DNA from: Malacoraja senta
Lineage: Eukaryota
Assembly (NCBI GenBank): GCA_038087875.1
Contig: CM075987.1
Location: 25,112,001-25,176,000, forward strand
DNA: 64,000 bases
Reading direction: 5' to 3'
Shown: positions 6,466 to 61,779 of the stretch, piece after piece
Layout: each line of letters opens with the position of its first letter
How positions within the stretch are numbered: the stretch's first letter is position 1
The notes under the pieces: model-generated
Told to the model about the DNA's origin: nothing
The model's database searches: none
What the model saw: the letters and a program-made list of their open reading frames with translations, nothing else
Position numbers and translations under genes: made by a program

Positions 6466-6617
6466 GGTTTAAGAAAGAACTGCTGATGCTGGAAAAAAAT
6501 CGAAGGTAGACAAAAAATGCTGGAGAAACTCAGCGGGTGAGGCAGCATCTACGGAGAGATAGTCCTTCTCTCCATTGGTGCTGCCTCACCCGCTGAGTTT
6601 CTCCAGCATTTTTTGTC
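6466..6617 (-). mobile_element. Penelope-derived palindromic short element
   Basis: Inverted copies of the PLE 3' segment; near-duplicated flank TATCGTGGAG(G/A)G(C/T)GAAG at 6449-6465 and 6618-6634. Confidence 0.7.
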
Positions 6618-9092: not shown

Positions 9093-9297
9093 GGTAGACA
9101 AAAGTGCTGGAGAACCTCAGCGGGTGCGGCAGCATCTATGGAGCGAAGGAAATAGGCAACGTTTCGGGCCGAAACCCTTCTTCAGACCCGAAACGTTGCC
9201 TATATCCTTCGCTCCATAGATGCTGCCGCACCCGCTGAGTTTCTCCGGCACTTTTGTCTACCATCGATTTTCCAGCATCTGCAGTTCCTTCTTGAAC
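9093..9297. mobile_element. Penelope-derived palindromic element with hammerhead-type motif
   Basis: About 75-bp inverted arms; minus-strand CTGAAGAAGGGTTTCGGCCCGAAACGTT; perfect 15-bp TSD ATCAGAATAAAAGGA (9078-9092, 9298-9312). Confidence 0.85.
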
Positions 9298-14115: not shown

Positions 14116-14546
14116 AGCCTTGAATCCTTGTGCTATATCATTCTATAACTTCACCAAAAGTCGGATTTTTTCTCTTCTCCTTAATTGCATGTCTCACAAA
14201 TCTCTAAAATAATCCTGCAGTATCCCTCAACAGGATGCACAAACTGATTCAACAGCAGAAATAGAAGCGAAGAAAAGACACAAAGTGCTGGAGTAACTCA
14301 ATATGTCAGGCAACATCTCCGGAGAACATGGATATATAATGCTTTGGGTCTGGACCCTTCTTCAGACTGATTGAAGTGGTGTAATAGGAAGCTGGGAAAG
14401 AGGAGGGGCAGAACAAAGCCCGACAGGTAAGAGGTGGATACAGGTGAGGGGGAGGGTTTATGAGGGGGGGGGTTTATGACATACGATGAAAGAATGCACT
14501 GACTGGGCTTATATTCACAGGAATTTAGAAGGATGAGAGGGGATCT

Positions 14547-14600
14547 GGGGTGGGAGATTGCAACCTTCATGTGGTCCGCCCTGTTTCGACTAATGCAATC
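14547..14600 (+). ncRNA. Putative minimal (P4-less) HDV-like self-cleaving ribozyme
   Basis: P1 GGGGTGG/CCGCCCT (G-U at +1), P2 GATTGCA/TGCAATC, P3 ACC/GGT, L3 TTCATGT, linker GTTTCGA, J4/2 CTAA with catalytic-position C14590. Confidence 0.8.
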
Positions 14601-14683
14601 AACTCGACGTGCACAAACGGAAGATCAAATAGAACAAGTTGTCCTACAACTTTAGGCTGTGCGCGCCACACGAAAGAAGAAGG
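14547..14683 (+). mobile_element. Short non-autonomous retroelement (family A) headed by a minimal HDV-like ribozyme, (AAG)n tail
   Basis: Interrupts a CR1 reading frame; TSD GGGGATCT (14539-14546, 14684-14691); ends CACACGAAAGAAGAAG; no Pol III A/B box seen. Confidence 0.85.
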
Positions 14684-15635
14684 GGGGATCTTATAGAAAC
14701 ATACATCATTCTTAAGGGATTGGACAGGCTAGATGCAGGAAAAAATATTCCCGATGTTGGGGGAGTCCAGAAGCAGGGGTCACAGTTTAAGAATAAGGGT
14801 AGGCCATTTAGGACTGAGATGAGGAAAAACCTTTTCACCCGGAGAGTTGTGAATCTGTGGAATTCTCTGCCACAGAAGGTAGTGGAGGCCAATTCACTGG
14901 AAGTATTCAGGAGAGAGTTAGATATGGCTCTTAGGGCTAGGAATCAAGGGATATGGGGAGATAGCAGGAACGGGGTACTGATTTTGGATGACCAGCCATG
15001 ATCATATTGAATGGCGGTGCTGGCTCGAAGCACCGAATGGCCTACTCCTGCACCTATTTTCTTTGTTTCGATGTTTCTATGTTTCTTTGATAGGCAGATG
15101 GTTGGATGAAGGGCAGAGATCAAAGACAGAAAGAACGAGACAAAATGATTGAGGGGTTGTCAATTGTGAAGCTGGATGAAGGAATGTAGGTGAAGGGGGT
15201 TGGGGGGGTTGGGGAGAAATAGGTGCGAGTCCAAGTGGGGTACAGGAGAGAGGGGTTGGGAGGAAGGAAAATAAAAGGGAGGATGCGGGAAAAGGAAGGT
15301 GGGGAGGGGTTACAACCCAAAATATCACCTATCCATGTTATCAGAAGATACCGTCTGAAGATTGTCTCTTCTGCAGTTCCTTGTTTTAATGAAATAGACA
15401 CAAAATGCTGGAGTAACTCAGCGAGACAGGCAGCATTCCTGGAGAGAAGGAACGGGTGACATTTCGGGTCGAGACCCTTCTTCAGACTGAGAGTCACAGA
15501 AAAAGAGAGATATAGACGATGATGTAGAGAGGCGTAGAACAATGAATGAACGATATGCAAAAAAGTAACGATGATAAAGGAAACCGGCCATTGTTAGCTG
15601 TTTGTTGGGTGAAAACGAGAAACTGGTGCGACTTG

Positions 15636-15810
15636 GTAGGCAAAAGTGCTGGAGAAACTCAGCGGGTGCAACAGCATCTATGGAGCGAACGGTTTCGGCC
15701 CGAAACGTTGCCTATTTCCTTTGCTCCATAGATGCTGCCGCACCCGCTGAGTTTCTCCAGCACTTTTGTCTACCTTCGATTTTCCAGCATCTGCAGTTCC
15801 TTCTTAAACA
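15636..15810. mobile_element. Penelope-derived palindromic short element
   Basis: Inverted arms, PLE-type terminus CCAGCATCTGCAGTTCCTTCTTAAACA. Confidence 0.75.
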
Positions 15811-22160: not shown

Positions 22161-23999
22161 TATTCAGCGCAGGTAGACACAAAAAGCTGGAGTAACTCAG
22201 CGGGACAGGCAGCATCTCTGAAGAGAAGGAATGGGTGACGTTTTGGGTCGAGACCCTTCTTCAGACTAGTTAGGGATAAGGGAAACGAGAGATATAGACG
22301 ATGATGTAGTGTGATAGAGAGCGAAGAACGCATGATATTGCTCACCGACATATTAGTTTCATCGTTTCTCCTGAGATGTGTTGAGGGAAACAAATTTCAA
22401 ACAATTCCATCTGTTGTTCCCAACATGGGATGGTTCTCCCCTGCCCGTGGAAGTATTGCCGGTACATCACCTCAGCTGGGTATTGTCAGAATCAATAACG
22501 TTTCAGATTTATTTGTCACCAGTGATTTTTGATCCTTTCAACATTTGCAATCTGGTGCATGCTGAGCAATCAGCTTATCTGATCCGCGCAGCCCACAGCT
22601 TGCAAAAACCGAGAGATAGCCCACATTTCTCTCAGCCTGCTCATGCCAAAATAGAATCCAAACATCACTGCCTCAGCTATTTATTAATTGGCTGTACATT
22701 TTCTGACTGAACTGATCCACAACATGACCTTCTAATTGATCAAAATATCTGCTTTTTTCGGTTCCTGAGCAGCTATCTATCTCTCCCTCTCAACCCCATT
22801 CTCCTGCCTTCTCCCCGTAACCCCCGACTCCCATACTAATCAAGAATCCATCTCTCTCTGATTTAAAATATATCCACTGACTTGGCCTCCGCAGCCTTCT
22901 GTGGCAACAAATTCCACAGATTCACCACCCTCCATCTGATTGATACTAAGATACCTTAGTGTGATTGTGCCTGATCTTCCATATTAAAACACTTGATCTC
23001 GGAAGAATATAAATAAAAGATAGTGATGTTTATTTTTAAACTATTCTGAATATCCAGTGGGATATTGGGGGTCAAAATTACAAATCTTCAGAGTAAGAAA
23101 AATGTCACTTCATTTCAACTTTTTATTACCGTCTTATGGTTTTGAGATAGTTCTCATCTCCCAGGCAAGAGAAAGAGCTGTTAAGTATCCCTCCCTTGTA
23201 CCTTTCAATATGAGGAGCTAAACTCCCTTATCAACTCTTCTCATCTTTCTATCTTTCTAAATAATCTCTCCCCATGTGAAAGCCCCTAGCTCCAGGAGTC
23301 AATGCAATAATTTTTTATTGTGACACCCTCTGAGGCAGATCTTTCGCTCCTTACGACAAGAAATGTGAGAAGGCACACAATAATCTTGGCTTTCCCTCAC
23401 CAAATCCCTGTACGAATGCAGCAAGGATCGCTCACTGTGTAGCAAGGAACTGCAGATGCTGGTTTAAACCGAAGATAGACACAAGAAAGCTGGATAAACC
23501 CAGCGGGACAGGCAGCATCTCTGGAGAGAAGGAATGGGTGACGTTTCGGGATGACTGAAGAAGGGCCACGACCCGAAATGTCACCCATTCCTACTCTCCA
23601 GAGATGCTGCCTGTCCCGCTGAGTTACTTCAGCTTTTTGTTTCCACAATGGTTCATTGTTGGCTGAGGGGAAGGCGTTGAGACTCAGAGGGAAAGGGAAA
23701 CGACTTGAGAATCAGGGGAAAGGGAAACGAGAGATATAGACGGTGATATAGAGAGAATGAGAACAAAAACATATGAAAGATGAGCAAAAAAGGAACGATG
23801 ATAAAGGAAACAGGCCATTGCTGGGAGAGGGCCAGATGAAACGTCATCATGTTGAGTCTCATTGTCTGTAACTCGTTTTCACCTAGCCCCATCCCTAGTG
23901 GAAAGAACTCCTAGTGGAGGTGAGAGGCGGAAAAGTTTTCAGGAGCTGTGCAAGGCAAGTTTTTACACATAGATAGGTGGGTACTTTGCTATGTTCTAT

Positions 24000-48757: not shown

Positions 48758-49116
48758 TTAACACCAAGGCTTGTGACCAAGCAATTGAGTATCTCACAAT
48801 CAGCTCGAGAGGTTATAAACATTAGGATAAGTACCACAGCAAGAGCTCGCTACAATCACCTCTTTCTGGAGTACATTATAATTGTTGGCTCTGTTTAATC
48901 CAATTAAGGTCGACAGGTTTTTACAAATTTATTTTGGGCTTCATGTTACTGTGCAACACAGCAATGTTATAACTATTAGAATATTCACATATCCTGCCAA
49001 CTTTACCTTGCAACAAGTATAAAACTTAATGACTTTTCTTTGATGGGAATTGTTCATGACCAGACACAAGAAAGCCACATGAAATAGTTGGTCCAAGTTT
49101 AGTTTAGTTCAGAGAT

Positions 49117-49294
49117 GGGGGTCAAGGAAAGAGCGTTCACGTCGCGGCCCTGTTTCCACCAATCTTTCCACCACCACGCACAGGAAGCACAAGAAGCGCG
49201 AGACAGACACCATTGTACGCAGATGCCGAGAAGTGTGTTCAGCTCTGGCTGAATAACTTCTAATCTTGTGTGTGGACTCGATAAGAAGAAGAAG
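49117..49294 (+). mobile_element. Short non-autonomous retroelement (family B) headed by a minimal HDV/CPEB3-like ribozyme, (AAG)n tail
   Basis: Inserted in a V-SINE tail; TSD-like TTCAGAGAT/CTTAGAGAT; homologous to 61488-61657; ends CGATAAGAAGAAGAAG. Confidence 0.85.
49118..49169 (+). ncRNA. Putative minimal (P4-less) HDV/CPEB3-like ribozyme
   Basis: P1 GGGGTC/GGCCCT, P2 GGAAAGA/TCTTTCC, P3 GCG/CGC, L3 TTCACGT, linker GTTTCCA, J4/2 CCAA (C49159). Confidence 0.8.
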
Positions 49295-49440
49295 CTTAGA
49301 GATACAGCTCTAAAGTGAGCCCTTCGGCCCCTCGAGTCCATGCCGACCATCTATTACCCGTTCACAATAGTTCTATTTTATCCCACTTGCTCGTCCACTC
49401 CCGACACACTAGGGGCAATTTACAGAGGTCAAGTAACAGA

Positions 49441-49620
49441 GGGCGGCACGGTGGCGCAGCGGTAGAGTTGCTGCCTCACTGCGCCAGAGACCCGGGTTCG
49501 ATCCTGACTACGGGTGCTGCCTGTACGGAGTTTGTACCTTCTCCCCGTGACCTGCGTGCATTTCCTCTGGGTGCTCTGGTTGTCTCCCACACTGCAAAGA
49601 CGTACAGGTTGTCGTTTAAT
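49441..49620 (+). mobile_element. HE1-like V-SINE 5' part
   Basis: Head and V-domain, ending at the G-rich repeat. Confidence 0.8.
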
Positions 49621-49621
49621 T

Positions 49622-49731
49622 GAGGGGGAGAGGGGGAGAGGGGGAGAGGGGGAGAGGGGGAGAGGGGGAGAGGGGGAGAGGGGGAGAGGGGGAGAGGGGG
49701 AGAGGGGGAGAGGGGGAGAGGGGGAGAGGGG
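49622..49731 (+). repeat. (GGGGGAGA)n polypurine tandem repeat
   Basis: About 13 perfect 8-bp units. Confidence 0.95.
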
Positions 49732-52965: not shown

Positions 52966-53671
52966 TCACTCCTGCGCTATTTTACTGTGGAGTACCTCAA
53001 GTGGCAGAACAACACCTCATCTTGCACAGGCCAAACTACAGCCTTGTAGATGCGATAGAATATTTTCCATCTTTGGGTAACTTGTCATCTTTCCACCGGT
53101 ATCTGAAACGGCCAATTCTGCCACACAGACGTGCGACTGTGATTTTTGGTCATATTTTTCTTCTCAGTCAATAATTTCTGGGTTGCTGTCGACAGTACAT
53201 CCACAACATTGCTATGAGCTGTGCAGGAAGGAACTGCAGATGCTTCTTTAAACCGAAGACAGACACAAAATGCTGGAGTAACTCAGGGGGTCAGACAATT
53301 GCCGTGTTAATCTATTTGGTCTCGGAGATATTTCATATTCTCTCCAAACTTTCTTTACAACGGAATATTAACTTGCTTTCTTTCACAGTATTAACAAGGG
53401 GTCACAGACCTGAAAAGCTAATTTTGTTACTCCTTCCTCAGTCACAACCTGACCTGATGAATATTGCTGGCAATTTCTGTTTTTTAATTTAATTTAAGGT
53501 TTCTTTTGATTTTCACCACATTGCTCCTGCCCAAACGAGCTCCACTGATCTAAAGCATAGTAGGCCTTTGTGTTTCCATGGTTACTTTACCCAGTATTCA
53601 CATGGGCTTTTCAAGTGTGGAGGCCTTCTAAGTGTGGAGGCTAGTCTCTCTCTAGATATACTCAGACACAC

Positions 53672-54125
53672 CTATATATATATAATATTTATATATATAT
53701 TTATTATATATTTATTATATATATATATATATTTATTATATATAATATATTATATTTATTATATATATATATATATATATTTATTATATATATATATATA
53801 TTATTATATATATATATATTATATTAATTATTATATATATATATATATTTATTATATATATATATATATATTTATTATATATATATATAATATTTATATA
53901 TATATATATATATATATTTATTATATATATATATATATATATTTATTATATATATATATATATATTTATTATATATATATATATATATTTATTATATATA
54001 TATATATATATTTATTATATATATATATATATATTTATTATATATATATATATATATTATATAATATATATATATATATATTATATATATATATATATAT
54101 TATATATATATATATTTATTATATA

Positions 54126-54162
<37 letters not shown>

Positions 54163-54593
54163 TATATATATATTATATATTATATATATTTATATATATT
54201 TATATATATTATATATATTTATAATATTTATATATATATATATATTTTTATATATATTTATAATATTTTTATATTTATATATTTTTTATATTTATATATT
54301 ATTTTTATATTTATATATATTTTTATATTTATATATATTTTTATATTTATATATATTTTTATATATATATATATTTTTATATTTATATATATTTTTATAT
54401 TATATATATTTTTATAATATATATATATTTTATATATATATATATATTTTTATATATATATATATATATTTTTTATATATATATATATATTTTTATATAT
54501 ATATATTTTTATATATATATATTTTTTATATATATATTTTTATATATATATTTTTATATATATATTTTTATATATATTTATTTTTATATATAT

Positions 54594-54624
<31 letters not shown>

Positions 54625-54638
54625 ATTATATATATATA
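53672..54638. repeat. (TA)n-rich low-complexity tract
   Basis: About 970 bp composed only of A/T. Confidence 0.98.
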
Positions 54639-54639
54639 A

Positions 54640-55347
54640 CACACACAACACAATGTTTAAGAAAGAAATGCAGATGCTGGAAAATCTAAGGTAGACAAAA
54701 ATGCTGGAGGAACTCAGCGGATGAGGCAGCTTCTATGGAGAGAAGGAATAGGCGACAGTTTCGGGTCGAGACGTCACCTATTCCTTCTCTCGATAGAAGC
54801 TGCTCTCCACCGAGTTCCTCCAGCATTTTTGTCTACCTTCTTTTATATACACATACACACATACATACATATCTAAGTGTGGAGGTTATCAAAGCCCCAT
54901 CTCTCTCTACACATACACAGAGAGATACATATACGTATACACAGACACATATACACACACATATACATACAGTATACACATACATACACATTGATATATG
55001 CAAGTGTGTGCAAATATATATGAACATTTTCACCATATAAATGAATATTTTAAAGCATTCAAAGAGACAGACAAACAATAATGGTTTCAGGAGATTTGTT
55101 CTGTGTAAAACAAGGCTGTTTGTCAATGAGGCAGCTGTGTATGTTGGGTATTGCACTCTAATCTGAGGATCACCTACAGCGATGTCTCAGGATGTGATGA
55201 CTAGTTTCCAATGACCAAAACCATCCGCCTTTGCAGTTGGCATTAACTCCAGGCAGATGAGAGCTTTCTTTCTCCATTCCCAAGGGACCGAAATGACTCA
55301 ATGCCACCAATCCCTTTCAAACCAGTGGCTTGGTAACACAGGGAGTC
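54640..55347 (+). repeat. Direct duplicate, copy 1 (of 55895-56607)
   Basis: Near-identical about 700-bp segments on either side of the gap. Confidence 0.92.
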
Positions 55348-59632: not shown

Positions 59633-59794
59633 CGTGAAGCAAGATAAAAGTAAATACTCTTAATTTGTCTGCACAATTGAAGTAAATGCAGTGTGGTCCC
59701 AGTCAAAATCTACATCGGAGCAGAGTTCAAATGCTGTCAACTCCCCTTGATCAGATGGGGCTCATGTTGTTGAACCTCCCCGTGGTGAGCCCTG

Positions 59795-60145
59795 TCAAGT
59801 CAAGTCAAGTCAAGTCACTTTTATTTCTATAGCACATTTAAAAAACAACTCTCGTTGACCAAAGTGCTTTACATCGGTGGAGGTACTAACGTTATACAAC
59901 AGTGGTTCATAGATTAAGTACATACATAAATACATACACATAGCCCTCCCTCAGAGGACGTCAAGAAAGGCTTGGGAGTAAAGATGAGTTTTAAGTCTTG
60001 ACTTAAAGGAGTCGATGGAGGGGGCAGTTCTGATGGGAAGGGGGATGCTGTTCCACAGTCTAGGAGCTGCAACCGCAAAGGCGCGGTCGCCCCTGAGCTT
60101 ATGCCTAGACCGCGGGATGTTCAGTAACCCTCAGTCTGACTGGCC
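59795..60145 (-). mobile_element. L2-clade LINE 3' fragment with (CTTGA)n tail
   Basis: Minus strand GDRAFAVAAPRLWNSIP..FKSRLKTHL; TGTAAAGCACTTTGG..GTGCTATAGAAATAAA. Confidence 0.85.
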
Positions 60146-61289: not shown

Positions 61290-61487
61290 TTGTTACCAAC
61301 AGGTCCATGGGAAGATGTTGCTCTAGATTTTCCACCTCCATCAGGAAAATCAATACTAGTTGTGATCGATTACTACAGCAGATATTGTGAGTATGCAATA
61401 GTGAAGACTACAACATCGGAAAAGACCGTAGTGGCTTTGATGGAAATATACGCAAGACAGTGTGACAATGGGCCTCAGTTCATTCCT
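61290..61487 (+). pseudogene. Degenerate Gypsy integrase core fragment
   Basis: LPTGPWEDVALDF..ILVVIDYYSRY..DNGPQF. Confidence 0.8.
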
Positions 61488-61657
61488 GGGGTCAAGGAAA
61501 GAGCGTTCACGTCACGGCCCTGTTTCCAACAATCTTTCCACCACCACGCACAAGAAGCGCAAGAAGCGTAAGAAACACCATTGGATGCAGATGCCGAGAA
61601 GTGTGTTCAGCTTTGACTGAACAGCTTCTAATCTTGTGTGTGGACTCGATAAGAAGA
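61488..61657 (+). mobile_element. Family B ribozyme-headed retroelement, second copy (ribozyme mutated)
   Basis: TSD AGTTCATTCCT (61477-61487, 61658-61668); starts exactly at GGGGTC; (AAG)n tail. Confidence 0.88.
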
Positions 61658-61779
61658 AGTTCATTCCTTAGAAGTTGGCTGACTACATGAAGAACAGCGG
61701 TGCGTACCATCACAAAGTGGCTTAAAAATGTTTCAATCAATTGCCCTCTCACTCTTCTGAACTGCGGCAGGGTCAAACC

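Follow-up and report, generated by a model that had tools for sequence, protein, structure and literature searches.

The CPEB3 ribozyme is among the few self-cleaving RNAs conserved in mammals and has been tied to memory. Does a repeat in the genome of a skate, Malacoraja senta, carry a ribozyme of the same kind, and what would this say about where the mammalian one came from? The question arose from an earlier note on a 64,000-nt stretch of this genome (contig CM075987.1, positions 25,112,001 to 25,176,000; hereafter the window), in which a string at positions 49117 to 49169 had been likened to the core of the mammalian ribozyme. The origin of the CPEB3 ribozyme is regarded as open, and since the ribozyme is described as unknown outside mammals there is no outgroup for reconstructing its ancestry (PMC8233481). 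From the analyses below we consider it highly probable that window positions 49118 to 49294 are a bipartite, non-autonomous derivative of a Vingi-like long interspersed nuclear element (LINE) carrying a CPEB3-family ribozyme without helix P4, and that the mammalian CPEB3 ribozyme is most simply read as a retained LINE 5′ end.

A short retroposon with a CPEB3-type ribozyme at its 5′ end

The string was found in the window where it had been reported, as the head of a repeat that we call family B. The element had been taken to start at 49117, which we correct to G49118: among 40 scored genome matches, the alignment began at query position 2 in 32 cases, at position 1 in 5, and at position 3 in 3. 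G49117 is an extra base separating the left target-site duplication (TSD) from the element, and the copy as a whole was inserted within another repeat (family D20). Its parts are as follows, HDV standing for hepatitis delta virus.

49111 to 49116, + strand: left TSD, AGAGAT, the same hexamer as at 49298 to 49303
49118 to 49169, + strand: P4-less HDV-like ribozyme of CPEB3 type, 52 nt, from the RF00622 match, fold and covariation
49118 to 49123, pairing with 49146 to 49151: P1, 6 bp
49124 to 49125: J1/2
49126 to 49132, pairing with 49163 to 49169: P2
49133 to 49135, pairing with 49143 to 49145: P3
49136 to 49142: L3, UUCACGU
G49152, pairing with C49138: P1.1, one pair
49153 to 49158: linker in place of P4, counted as 5 nt (49154 to 49158) in the comparison with RF00622
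49159 to 49162: J4/2, CCAA, with C49159 as putative catalytic base
49170 to 49209, + strand: 5′ body, in which 9-nt CACAAGAAG-like units occur in varying number
49210 to 49263, + strand: relic of the last 17 codons and stop of a LINE open reading frame (ORF), PLYADAEKCVQLWLNNF followed by the stop, from similarity to the C-termini of LINE homologues
49264 to 49282, + strand: short 3′ untranslated region (UTR), ending ...ACTCGAT
49283 to 49294, + strand: (AAG)4 tail
49298 to 49303, + strand: right TSD, AGAGAT

The likeness held up against the Rfam model of the CPEB3 ribozyme (RF00622, CPEB3_ribozyme; cut-off 35 bits). The model matched 49106 to 49169 with 31.9 bits (E of 1.4e-6 in 601 nt and 1.4e-4 in the whole window), and within this match 19 consecutive nt, AGCGUUCACGUCGCGGCCC, were the same as in the consensus of the model. 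At E≤10, none of the other HDV-type families in Rfam gave a match; a default Rfam search of the window at gathering thresholds was empty. The 13-mer GCGTTCACGTCGC had a single exact occurrence in the window, at 49133 to 49145, and a one-mismatch version at 61503 to 61515, within a second family B copy; two matches were thus found at up to two mismatches, against 0.36 expected, and 7 of 100 shuffles also reached two. The active site was of the CPEB3-specific kind, with a 7-nt L3 (UUCACGU) and a P1.1 of one G-C pair and a U-U. A P1.1 reduced to one pair, as in CPEB3, had been predicted and was seen here, G-U following the 3′ strand of P1. According to the accessible part of a preprint (bioRxiv 10.1101/2022.09.22.508989), the 7-nt L3 and one-pair P1.1 set CPEB3 apart from the HDV ribozyme. 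The first base of the ribozyme closes P1 by a wobble pair (G49118 with U49151).

Family B in the genome

The genome searched comprised 1.94 Gb in 6182 contigs; numbers with the prefix L denote individual fetched loci. A search with the whole family B element gave 1810 first-look candidates, the best 40 of which were scored and were all 95 to 100% identical and near full length. An exact 34-nt core occurred 461 times, compared to 0 for the reversed control. Thirty loci were fetched and 28 could be parsed: 25 opened with GGGG, and 15 had exact TSDs of at least 6 nt abutting G1 and the tail, compared to 1 of 28 when flanks of different loci were paired. Some of these loci are duplicates of one insertion (L009/L010, L019/L020, and L022/L025). 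Overall, copies showed TSDs of 6 to 14 bp and insertions beginning exactly at G1. In contigs from DNA runs of other organisms, the likeness ended exactly at 49118 in 349 and 246 cases, and two contigs held the same insertion plus the left flank, so the flagged insertion is shared between species.

The second copy in the window reads as follows.

61488 to 61659, + strand: second family B copy, with TSD TTCATTCCT at 61479 to 61487 and 61660 to 61668

It has a G-to-A change in the 3′ strand of P3 and scored 21.6 bits on RF00622. This copy splits an integrase-core (rve) remnant of another retroelement, found at 61302 to 61487 and from 61669 onward, for which the match was weak (19.3 bits, below the Pfam cut-off).

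We also considered whether family B could be a classical short interspersed nuclear element (SINE), with a tRNA, 7SL or 5S head and an RNA polymerase III promoter. This was rejected: ARAGORN called no tRNA-like head in 48900 to 49600, and the head of the element is the ribozyme. A frame ending ...CVQLWLNNF and a stop had no interruption as far back as the element's first bases (49120 to 49263), as was the case in 24 of 26 family B copies. Two different 5′ frames were open in two subfamilies differing by a 1-nt indel, with no ATG. A fused ORF through the whole element was set aside, given these two frames, the missing start codon and the lack of any domain. A protein search with the 47-aa frame found no match, and Pfam gave one sub-threshold chance match only. 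The open frame may be chance, or a trace of a LINE ORF that began directly after the ribozyme. In a duplicated family B copy (L070/L071, contig C13), P3 reads GUG/CAU, two separate CpG transitions jointly keeping all three pairs.

A sister family and covariation of the fold

A descriptor scan of the window for HDV-like folds, for which shuffled windows gave 0 to 3 low-grade matches per strand, returned two sites, the flagged one and 14547 to 14600. The latter heads a second retroposon, family A.

14547 to 14682, + strand: family A copy, a 136-nt sister retroposon with tail ...CACACGAAAGAAGAAG and TSD GGGGATCT at 14539 to 14546 and 14684 to 14691
14547 to 14600, + strand: family A P4-less ribozyme, 54 nt
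59757 to 59831, + strand: degraded remnant of another type of ribozyme, P1 GGGGCUC/GAGCCCU and P3 ACC/GGU (20.5 bits, E 0.007, with model R1, built in this analysis)

Family A gave 2147 first-look candidates in the genome and 1584 exact 35-nt cores (control, 0). From 30 fetched loci, 29 copies were parsed, of which 28 opened with GGGG and 21 had exact TSDs of at least 6 nt, compared to 2 of 29 with flanks of different loci paired. The L3 of intact family A copies is UUCACGU, as in family B. Pattern searches for additional P4-less families returned mutated A and B copies only, and a structure-descriptor scan of 90 loci found nothing beyond these two families. The fragment at 59757 to 59831 has a (GTCAA)n run at the P4 position and is closest to the ribozyme of a metagenome LINE (L171, see below).

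The A and B ribozymes differed on both sides of 8 of 16 comparable pairs (five in P2, two in P3, and one in P1) with no pair broken, and their unpaired parts were identical at 18 of 20 positions. Outside the ribozyme, the bodies of A and B aligned no better than shuffles (131 of 200 shuffles were as good), whereas the ribozymes did align (0 of 200). Subfamilies A1 and A2 agreed at 49 to 51 of 54 ribozyme positions and at 60 to 65 of 79 body positions; the A2 rows had been chosen by a pattern forcing one mismatch in the 3′ strand of P3. In alignment A1, 96% of cells were paired, compared to 83.8% in shuffles. Alignment A3 (19 rows from A, B and the P4-bearing types C1 to C5 described below; 25 pairs) had 90% paired cells compared to 78.9% in shuffles and 35 to 45% with slid partners, and double changes in 17 pairs, which none of 500 shuffles matched. 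In alignment A5 (23 rows, made by a model and including two weak window matches), 87.4% of cells were paired overall compared to 64.0% in shuffles, and P2 was 91.9% paired although it had been left out of the search model; double changes were seen in 7 of 7 pairs of P2, 7 of 7 of P4, and 5 of 7 of P1. Across alignments, slid-partner controls gave 35 to 63% paired. The nested double pseudoknot (P1, P2, P3, and P1.1, with or without P4) thus showed double changes in P1, P2, P3, and P4, and the putative catalytic C and the C-N-A-A junction were retained in all families, as CCAA, CUAA or CGAA.

P4-bearing relatives and the parent LINE

When the skate genome was searched with RF00622, the best 59 of about 102,000 rough candidates were scored, yielding 51 matches. 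At least 39 exceeded the cut-off, with a top score of 64.2 bits, and 22 lay at 43 to 64 bits, mostly with lengths of 70 to 89 nt. No matches were obtained in 14 control genomes. Twenty of these loci were fetched; cmscan re-scored 18, all above the cut-off (39.2 to 64.2 bits) and spanning model positions 1 to 78. These relatives bear P4, which is present in families C1 to C5. In type C1 (e.g., L103 to L106), P1 is GGGGAUC/GAUCCCU, P2 GUAGAA/UUCUAC, P3 GCG/CGC and L3 UUCACGU, followed by G-U-C, a 7-bp P4, and G-CGAA; the flank switches exactly at G1 in each C1 copy. One family B variant also exceeded the cut-off (40.4 bits at C2:95332788).

Five old copies, 83 to 88% alike, make up type C3, which is close to the mammalian form.

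L114: contig C1
L116: contig C10
L118: contig C3
L119: contig C3
L120: contig C8

They are colinear with all 78 RF00622 positions, the single inserted base lying in L4. Compared by eye over 67 ribozyme positions, L114 was identical to the consensus at 55 and L119 at 52, most differences being private to one copy. The 5′ strand of P1 was as in the consensus in L119 and the 3′ strand in L116; P3, G-U-C, and CGAA were exactly as in the consensus, and the 7-bp P4 stem was identical in L120. P2 differed by one compensated pair and L3 by one base (UUCUCGU). The C3 copies may be very small elements, retrocopies of chimeric origin, or the heads of various bodies. A linkage to CPEB genes was sought and rejected: neither the C3 copies nor the other scored RF00622 matches lay on a contig holding a CPEB ZZ exon, these exons being on other contigs.

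Several of the ribozymes above the cut-off, type C1 among them, form the 5′ end of a 3.1-kb Vingi-like LINE with a single ORF, encoding apurinic/apyrimidinic endonuclease (APE) and reverse transcriptase (RT), and an (AAG)n tail. In L117 (about 3.1 kb), the ribozyme is followed by a 940-aa ORF with one stop, the frame continuing to the tail. Exo_endo_phos and RVT_1 domains were recognized in this ORF, as was a Cys/His motif close to the C-terminus, with no match to RNase H; the element ends in (AAG)4 and lies between two copies of an 11-nt TSD, ACAGAACAAAA. Beyond a frameshift close to its C-terminus, the L117 ORF runs stop-free into the (AAG)n tail (L117:3001 to 3234); in L125/L126, which are 86% identical to L117, the ORF ends ...KKWETAI and a stop shortly before the tail. 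At E≤1e-20, the ORF had 244 protein homologues, typically of 965 to 999 aa on contigs of 3.0 to 3.4 kb, with named hosts including amphioxus (Branchiostoma), sea urchins, starfish, fishes, Anolis carolinensis, insects, and crustaceans.

These homologues also account for the 3′ part of family B. The translated relic PLYADAEKCVQLWLNNF with its stop (CVQLWLN..) matched their extreme C-termini with a score of 55, compared to a maximum of 32 for the reversed-query control, one homologue ending ...NENAKKCVQLWLNHI; the 3′ part of family B is therefore the end of such an ORF. The earlier note had found the frame near the tail weakly similar to an Ingi-group C-terminus, and this proved to be a real LINE ORF relic, the LINE fitting descriptions of the Ingi-related Vingi elements. 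LINEs of this clade end in (C)AYACGA and a run of (AAG)n, (TCA)n, (TGA)n or (TAA)n trinucleotides. The 3′ end of family A is the same as in L147 and L128, and the (AAG)n tail of family B is as on L117, L125, L128, L147, and L171. The family B ribozyme is homologous to that of the LINE, its 5′ half being closest to type C1; it lacks P4, and a LINE with the same head was not found in the genome. Vingi elements have been described as having a single ORF of 993 aa (PMC3708506), as lacking RNase H (PMC13708176), and, in the accessible part of a 2018 survey (PMC5786205), as being about 3.1 kb long and giving rise to bipartite derivatives.

The same module in other hosts

Relatives of the LINE were also sought in metagenome records with an alignment of the LINE proteins, which returned 531, the best 80 of which were kept. 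Using a covariance model built from the skate ribozymes with P1, P3, and P4 only, ribozymes were found directly upstream of metagenome LINE ORFs. The highest score, 56.2 bits, was obtained for L132/L133/L134, three records of one locus; weaker scores were seen for L155 (29.4 bits), L143 (27.9), L204 (25.1), L171 (23.8), and L185/L198 (18.0). The L132 ORF is 51% identical to that of the skate LINE, and its ribozyme matches the CPEB3 consensus in P1, J1/2, P2, and P3, at 35 of the first 37 nt by eye, with L3 UCCACGU, a P1.1 with two G's, and J4/2 CUAA. L132 and L171 have TSDs abutting G1, CCGAGTCTT and CCTCTGGAA, respectively. The host of families A, B, and C is a cartilaginous fish, in which the ribozyme elements are multi-copy. 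Over 400 aa, its RAG1 shared 97% identity with a skate sequence, 87 to 90% with other elasmobranchs, and about 81% with mammals.

Origin of the CPEB3 ribozyme and alternative explanations

We propose the following life cycle for family B, which would retain the ribozyme head, a short body, the last codons of the LINE ORF with the 3′ UTR, and an (AAG)n tail. Having no tRNA-like head, it is probably transcribed by read-through from host units. The nascent RNA is predicted to fold into the nested double pseudoknot and to self-cleave 5′ of G49118, the fold suggesting C49159 as the general acid/base. The APE-RT protein of the LINE would then recognize the ...ACGA(AAG)n 3′ end and copy the RNA into a nicked target up to the 5′ end made by the ribozyme. 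The family B ribozyme would itself derive, with loss of P4, from the 5′ ribozyme of the parent LINE clade.

Because the LINE ribozyme belongs to the CPEB3_ribozyme family by the Rfam cut-off, the mammalian intronic ribozyme would most simply be a retained LINE 5′ end. The earlier suggestion that a mobile element could be its source was much strengthened, with P4-bearing relatives exceeding the cut-off by up to 29 bits and sharing P1, P2, and P4 with the CPEB3 ribozyme. It seems likely that the CPEB3 ribozyme is not a mammalian invention: an old clade of Vingi-like LINEs, spread across the metazoans, would use it as a conserved module for 5′ processing, and the mammalian copy would be the exapted head of an insertion into a CPEB3 intron. 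We likewise think that the skate genome probably holds this module in three forms: at the start of the LINE, in short old copies close to the mammalian sequence, and, without P4, at the head of tiny retroposons numbering in the thousands.

Several observations weigh against this account. The flagged ribozyme has no P4 and falls below the RF00622 cut-off, and none of 20 other family B loci reached 35 bits (18 matches, 26.7 to 34.4 bits). Family A has a different P3 (ACC/GGU) and scored 15.9 bits on the CPEB3 model, compared to 16.0 on the HDV model of Faecalibacterium prausnitzii. The C3 copies share only about 100 nt (the ribozyme and some 33 nt) and then diverge completely. No LINE copy with the exact 3′ end of family B was found in the genome: a 70-nt 3′ query gave 56 candidates, of which 40 were scored, 30 fetched, and 26 parsed, nearly all with family B's own ribozyme head or 5′ body and two (L065 and L068) being 5′-truncated copies. 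A pattern omitting the bases found upstream in family B gave four genome matches, none of them a LINE. The partner LINE likely belongs to the Vingi clade, an assignment made by published descriptions (about 3.1 kb, one APE and RT ORF, no RNase H) rather than by reference sequences. The covariation rows are related and represent few independent lineages, so that the figures given above are counts and not probabilities. Nested-only minimum free energy (MFE) folding was no better than for shuffles (z of +0.22 to +0.60), as expected for a pseudoknot, and lends the fold no support. In one RNA-seq run (polyA, from another organism) with 212 reads, 50 ran past 49118 into foreign sequence, and read starts were not reported to pile up there. 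As read directions were about equal and most reads only 90 to 95% alike, this run neither shows nor excludes cleavage.

The strongest alternative, which we nevertheless hold to be unlikely, is that the retroposon ribozyme is real and its likeness to CPEB3 reflects the few sequences able to fill an HDV-type active site, saying nothing of the mammalian origin. Active-site convergence among HDV-like ribozymes is documented: in the accessible part of Eickbush et al. 2013 (PMC3774820), the termite R2 active site is identical to a fungal one, which was ascribed to convergence. The near-equal scores of family A on the two models fit such a reading, as does the L3 consensus of the bacterial F. prausnitzii model (UCUaCGU), which likewise ends in ACGU. 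However, the likeness extends to helices that are not fixed by catalysis and vary freely in the sister families, as the double changes in P1, P2, and P4 attest. The C3 copies match the consensus in P1, P3, P4, and, save one compensated pair, P2, and are colinear over 78 positions; L132 has the consensus P1, J1/2, P2, and P3; and at least 39 genome matches exceed the curated cut-off. Since sister families change the shared helices freely by compensatory substitutions, shared descent is likelier than convergence, and the helix identities of C3 and L132 favor it further by their contrast with the free covariation elsewhere in the set. The earlier note had rated convergence as equally possible; for the flagged P4-less copy taken alone it may still apply, but for the lineage as a whole it is unlikely.

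Slightly less likely again is that families A and B, with their P4-less structures, have lost cleavage, their exact 5′ ends being set by a promoter or start site within the element or by a protein that binds the folded 5′ end. The missing P4 and the RNA-seq run, with its 50 crossing reads and no pile-up of starts, would be compatible with this, and in L1Tc the 5′ head also serves as promoter, according to the accessible part of PMC3383444. Against it, the ribozyme is better preserved than the body between A1 and A2, despite the choice of A2 rows with a mismatch in the 3′ strand of P3; all differences in helices that separate A from B are compensated; and the putative catalytic C and C-N-A-A junction are kept in all families. 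P4-less HDV-like ribozymes are moreover known, namely that of silkmoth R2, for which the accessible part of PMC3774820 quotes cleavage levels, and minimal drz ribozymes (PMC10879173).

Finally, a chance match of random repeat sequence to the covariance model has a negligible probability and is refuted as far as sequence analysis reaches: the score is below the gathering cut-off, and many other Rfam matches below threshold in the window are clearly false (e.g., miRNA models on hairpin repeats), but the local E is 1.4e-6, the same model gives 64 bits on relatives, and covariation, exact 5′ ends, and TSDs indicate a real structured element.

Other repeats in the window

Long near-perfect hairpin repeats (families D2, D3, and D7) were observed at 9095 to 9260, 23494 to 23628, 6518 to 6608, 15652 to 15757, and other positions, and attracted spurious sub-threshold matches to plant and animal miRNA models of Rfam. 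At 49620 to 49700, a (GGGGGAGA)n run lies directly after a tRNA-derived SINE copy, and a 1-kb AT-rich low-complexity tract spans 53650 to 54650.

Comparison with known systems

Some LINEs and SINEs are known to use HDV-like ribozymes (Weinberg et al. 2019). In the accessible part of the 2018 survey (PMC5786205), six clades with 5′ ribozymes are named, Vingi not among them, and one 2026 review covers Vingi and HDV-like ribozymes separately (PMC13708176). In the paper collection searched we found no literature linking the CPEB3 ribozyme to Vingi or other LINEs, and a prior description is still possible. With the present results, Vingi-like LINEs would join the clades whose RNA is processed by a ribozyme of their own, a point of relevance to gene-writing tools that employ Vingi 5′ UTRs (PMC13708176). 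A retrotransposon lineage with the same ribozyme also provides outgroups for CPEB3 and a concrete, testable origin, together with a natural series of variants for studying the tolerance of the fold (with and without P4, with one- or two-pair P1.1, and with many P1, P2, and P4 sequences).

The mammalian CPEB3 ribozyme (RF00622) shares with the flagged copy the nested double pseudoknot, L3 UUCACGU, P3 GCG/CGC, one-pair P1.1, and the C-N-A-A J4/2, and, in the relatives from the skate genome that pass the family cut-off, also P1, P2, and P4. The flagged copy differs in lacking P4, in having another P2 and a 6-bp P1, and in scoring 31.9 bits. The mammalian ribozyme is single-copy in CPEB3 intron 2, whereas the family B ribozyme is multi-copy and sits at retroposon 5′ ends in a cartilaginous fish. 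With the 5′ HDV-like ribozymes of retrotransposons that lack long terminal repeats (non-LTR elements; R2, L1Tc/NARTc, RTE, and Baggins), the skate ribozymes share the exact 5′ end, insertions that begin at the cleavage site, here a predicted one, and the presumed role of releasing the element from co-transcripts; they differ in the Vingi-like host LINE and the CPEB3-type active site.

As proposed bipartite LINE derivatives, families A and B resemble R2 SIDEs, NARTc/RIME, and the derivatives of Vingi-1_EE in having only a presumed LINE 5′ head and a LINE 3′ end, no coding capacity, and probable mobilization in trans. They are, however, very small (136 and 176 nt) and very abundant, their ribozyme lacks the P4 of the LINE, and for the body of family B no source LINE copy could be traced in the genome. 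Minimal P4-less HDV-like ribozymes of about 50 to 55 nt are also seen in drz-Mtgn, theta ribozymes, and silkmoth R2. While those come from metagenomes, phages, and an insect R2, the ribozymes described here are from a vertebrate genome, where the P4-less form sits beside P4-bearing relatives and the loss of P4 is therefore visible within one lineage.
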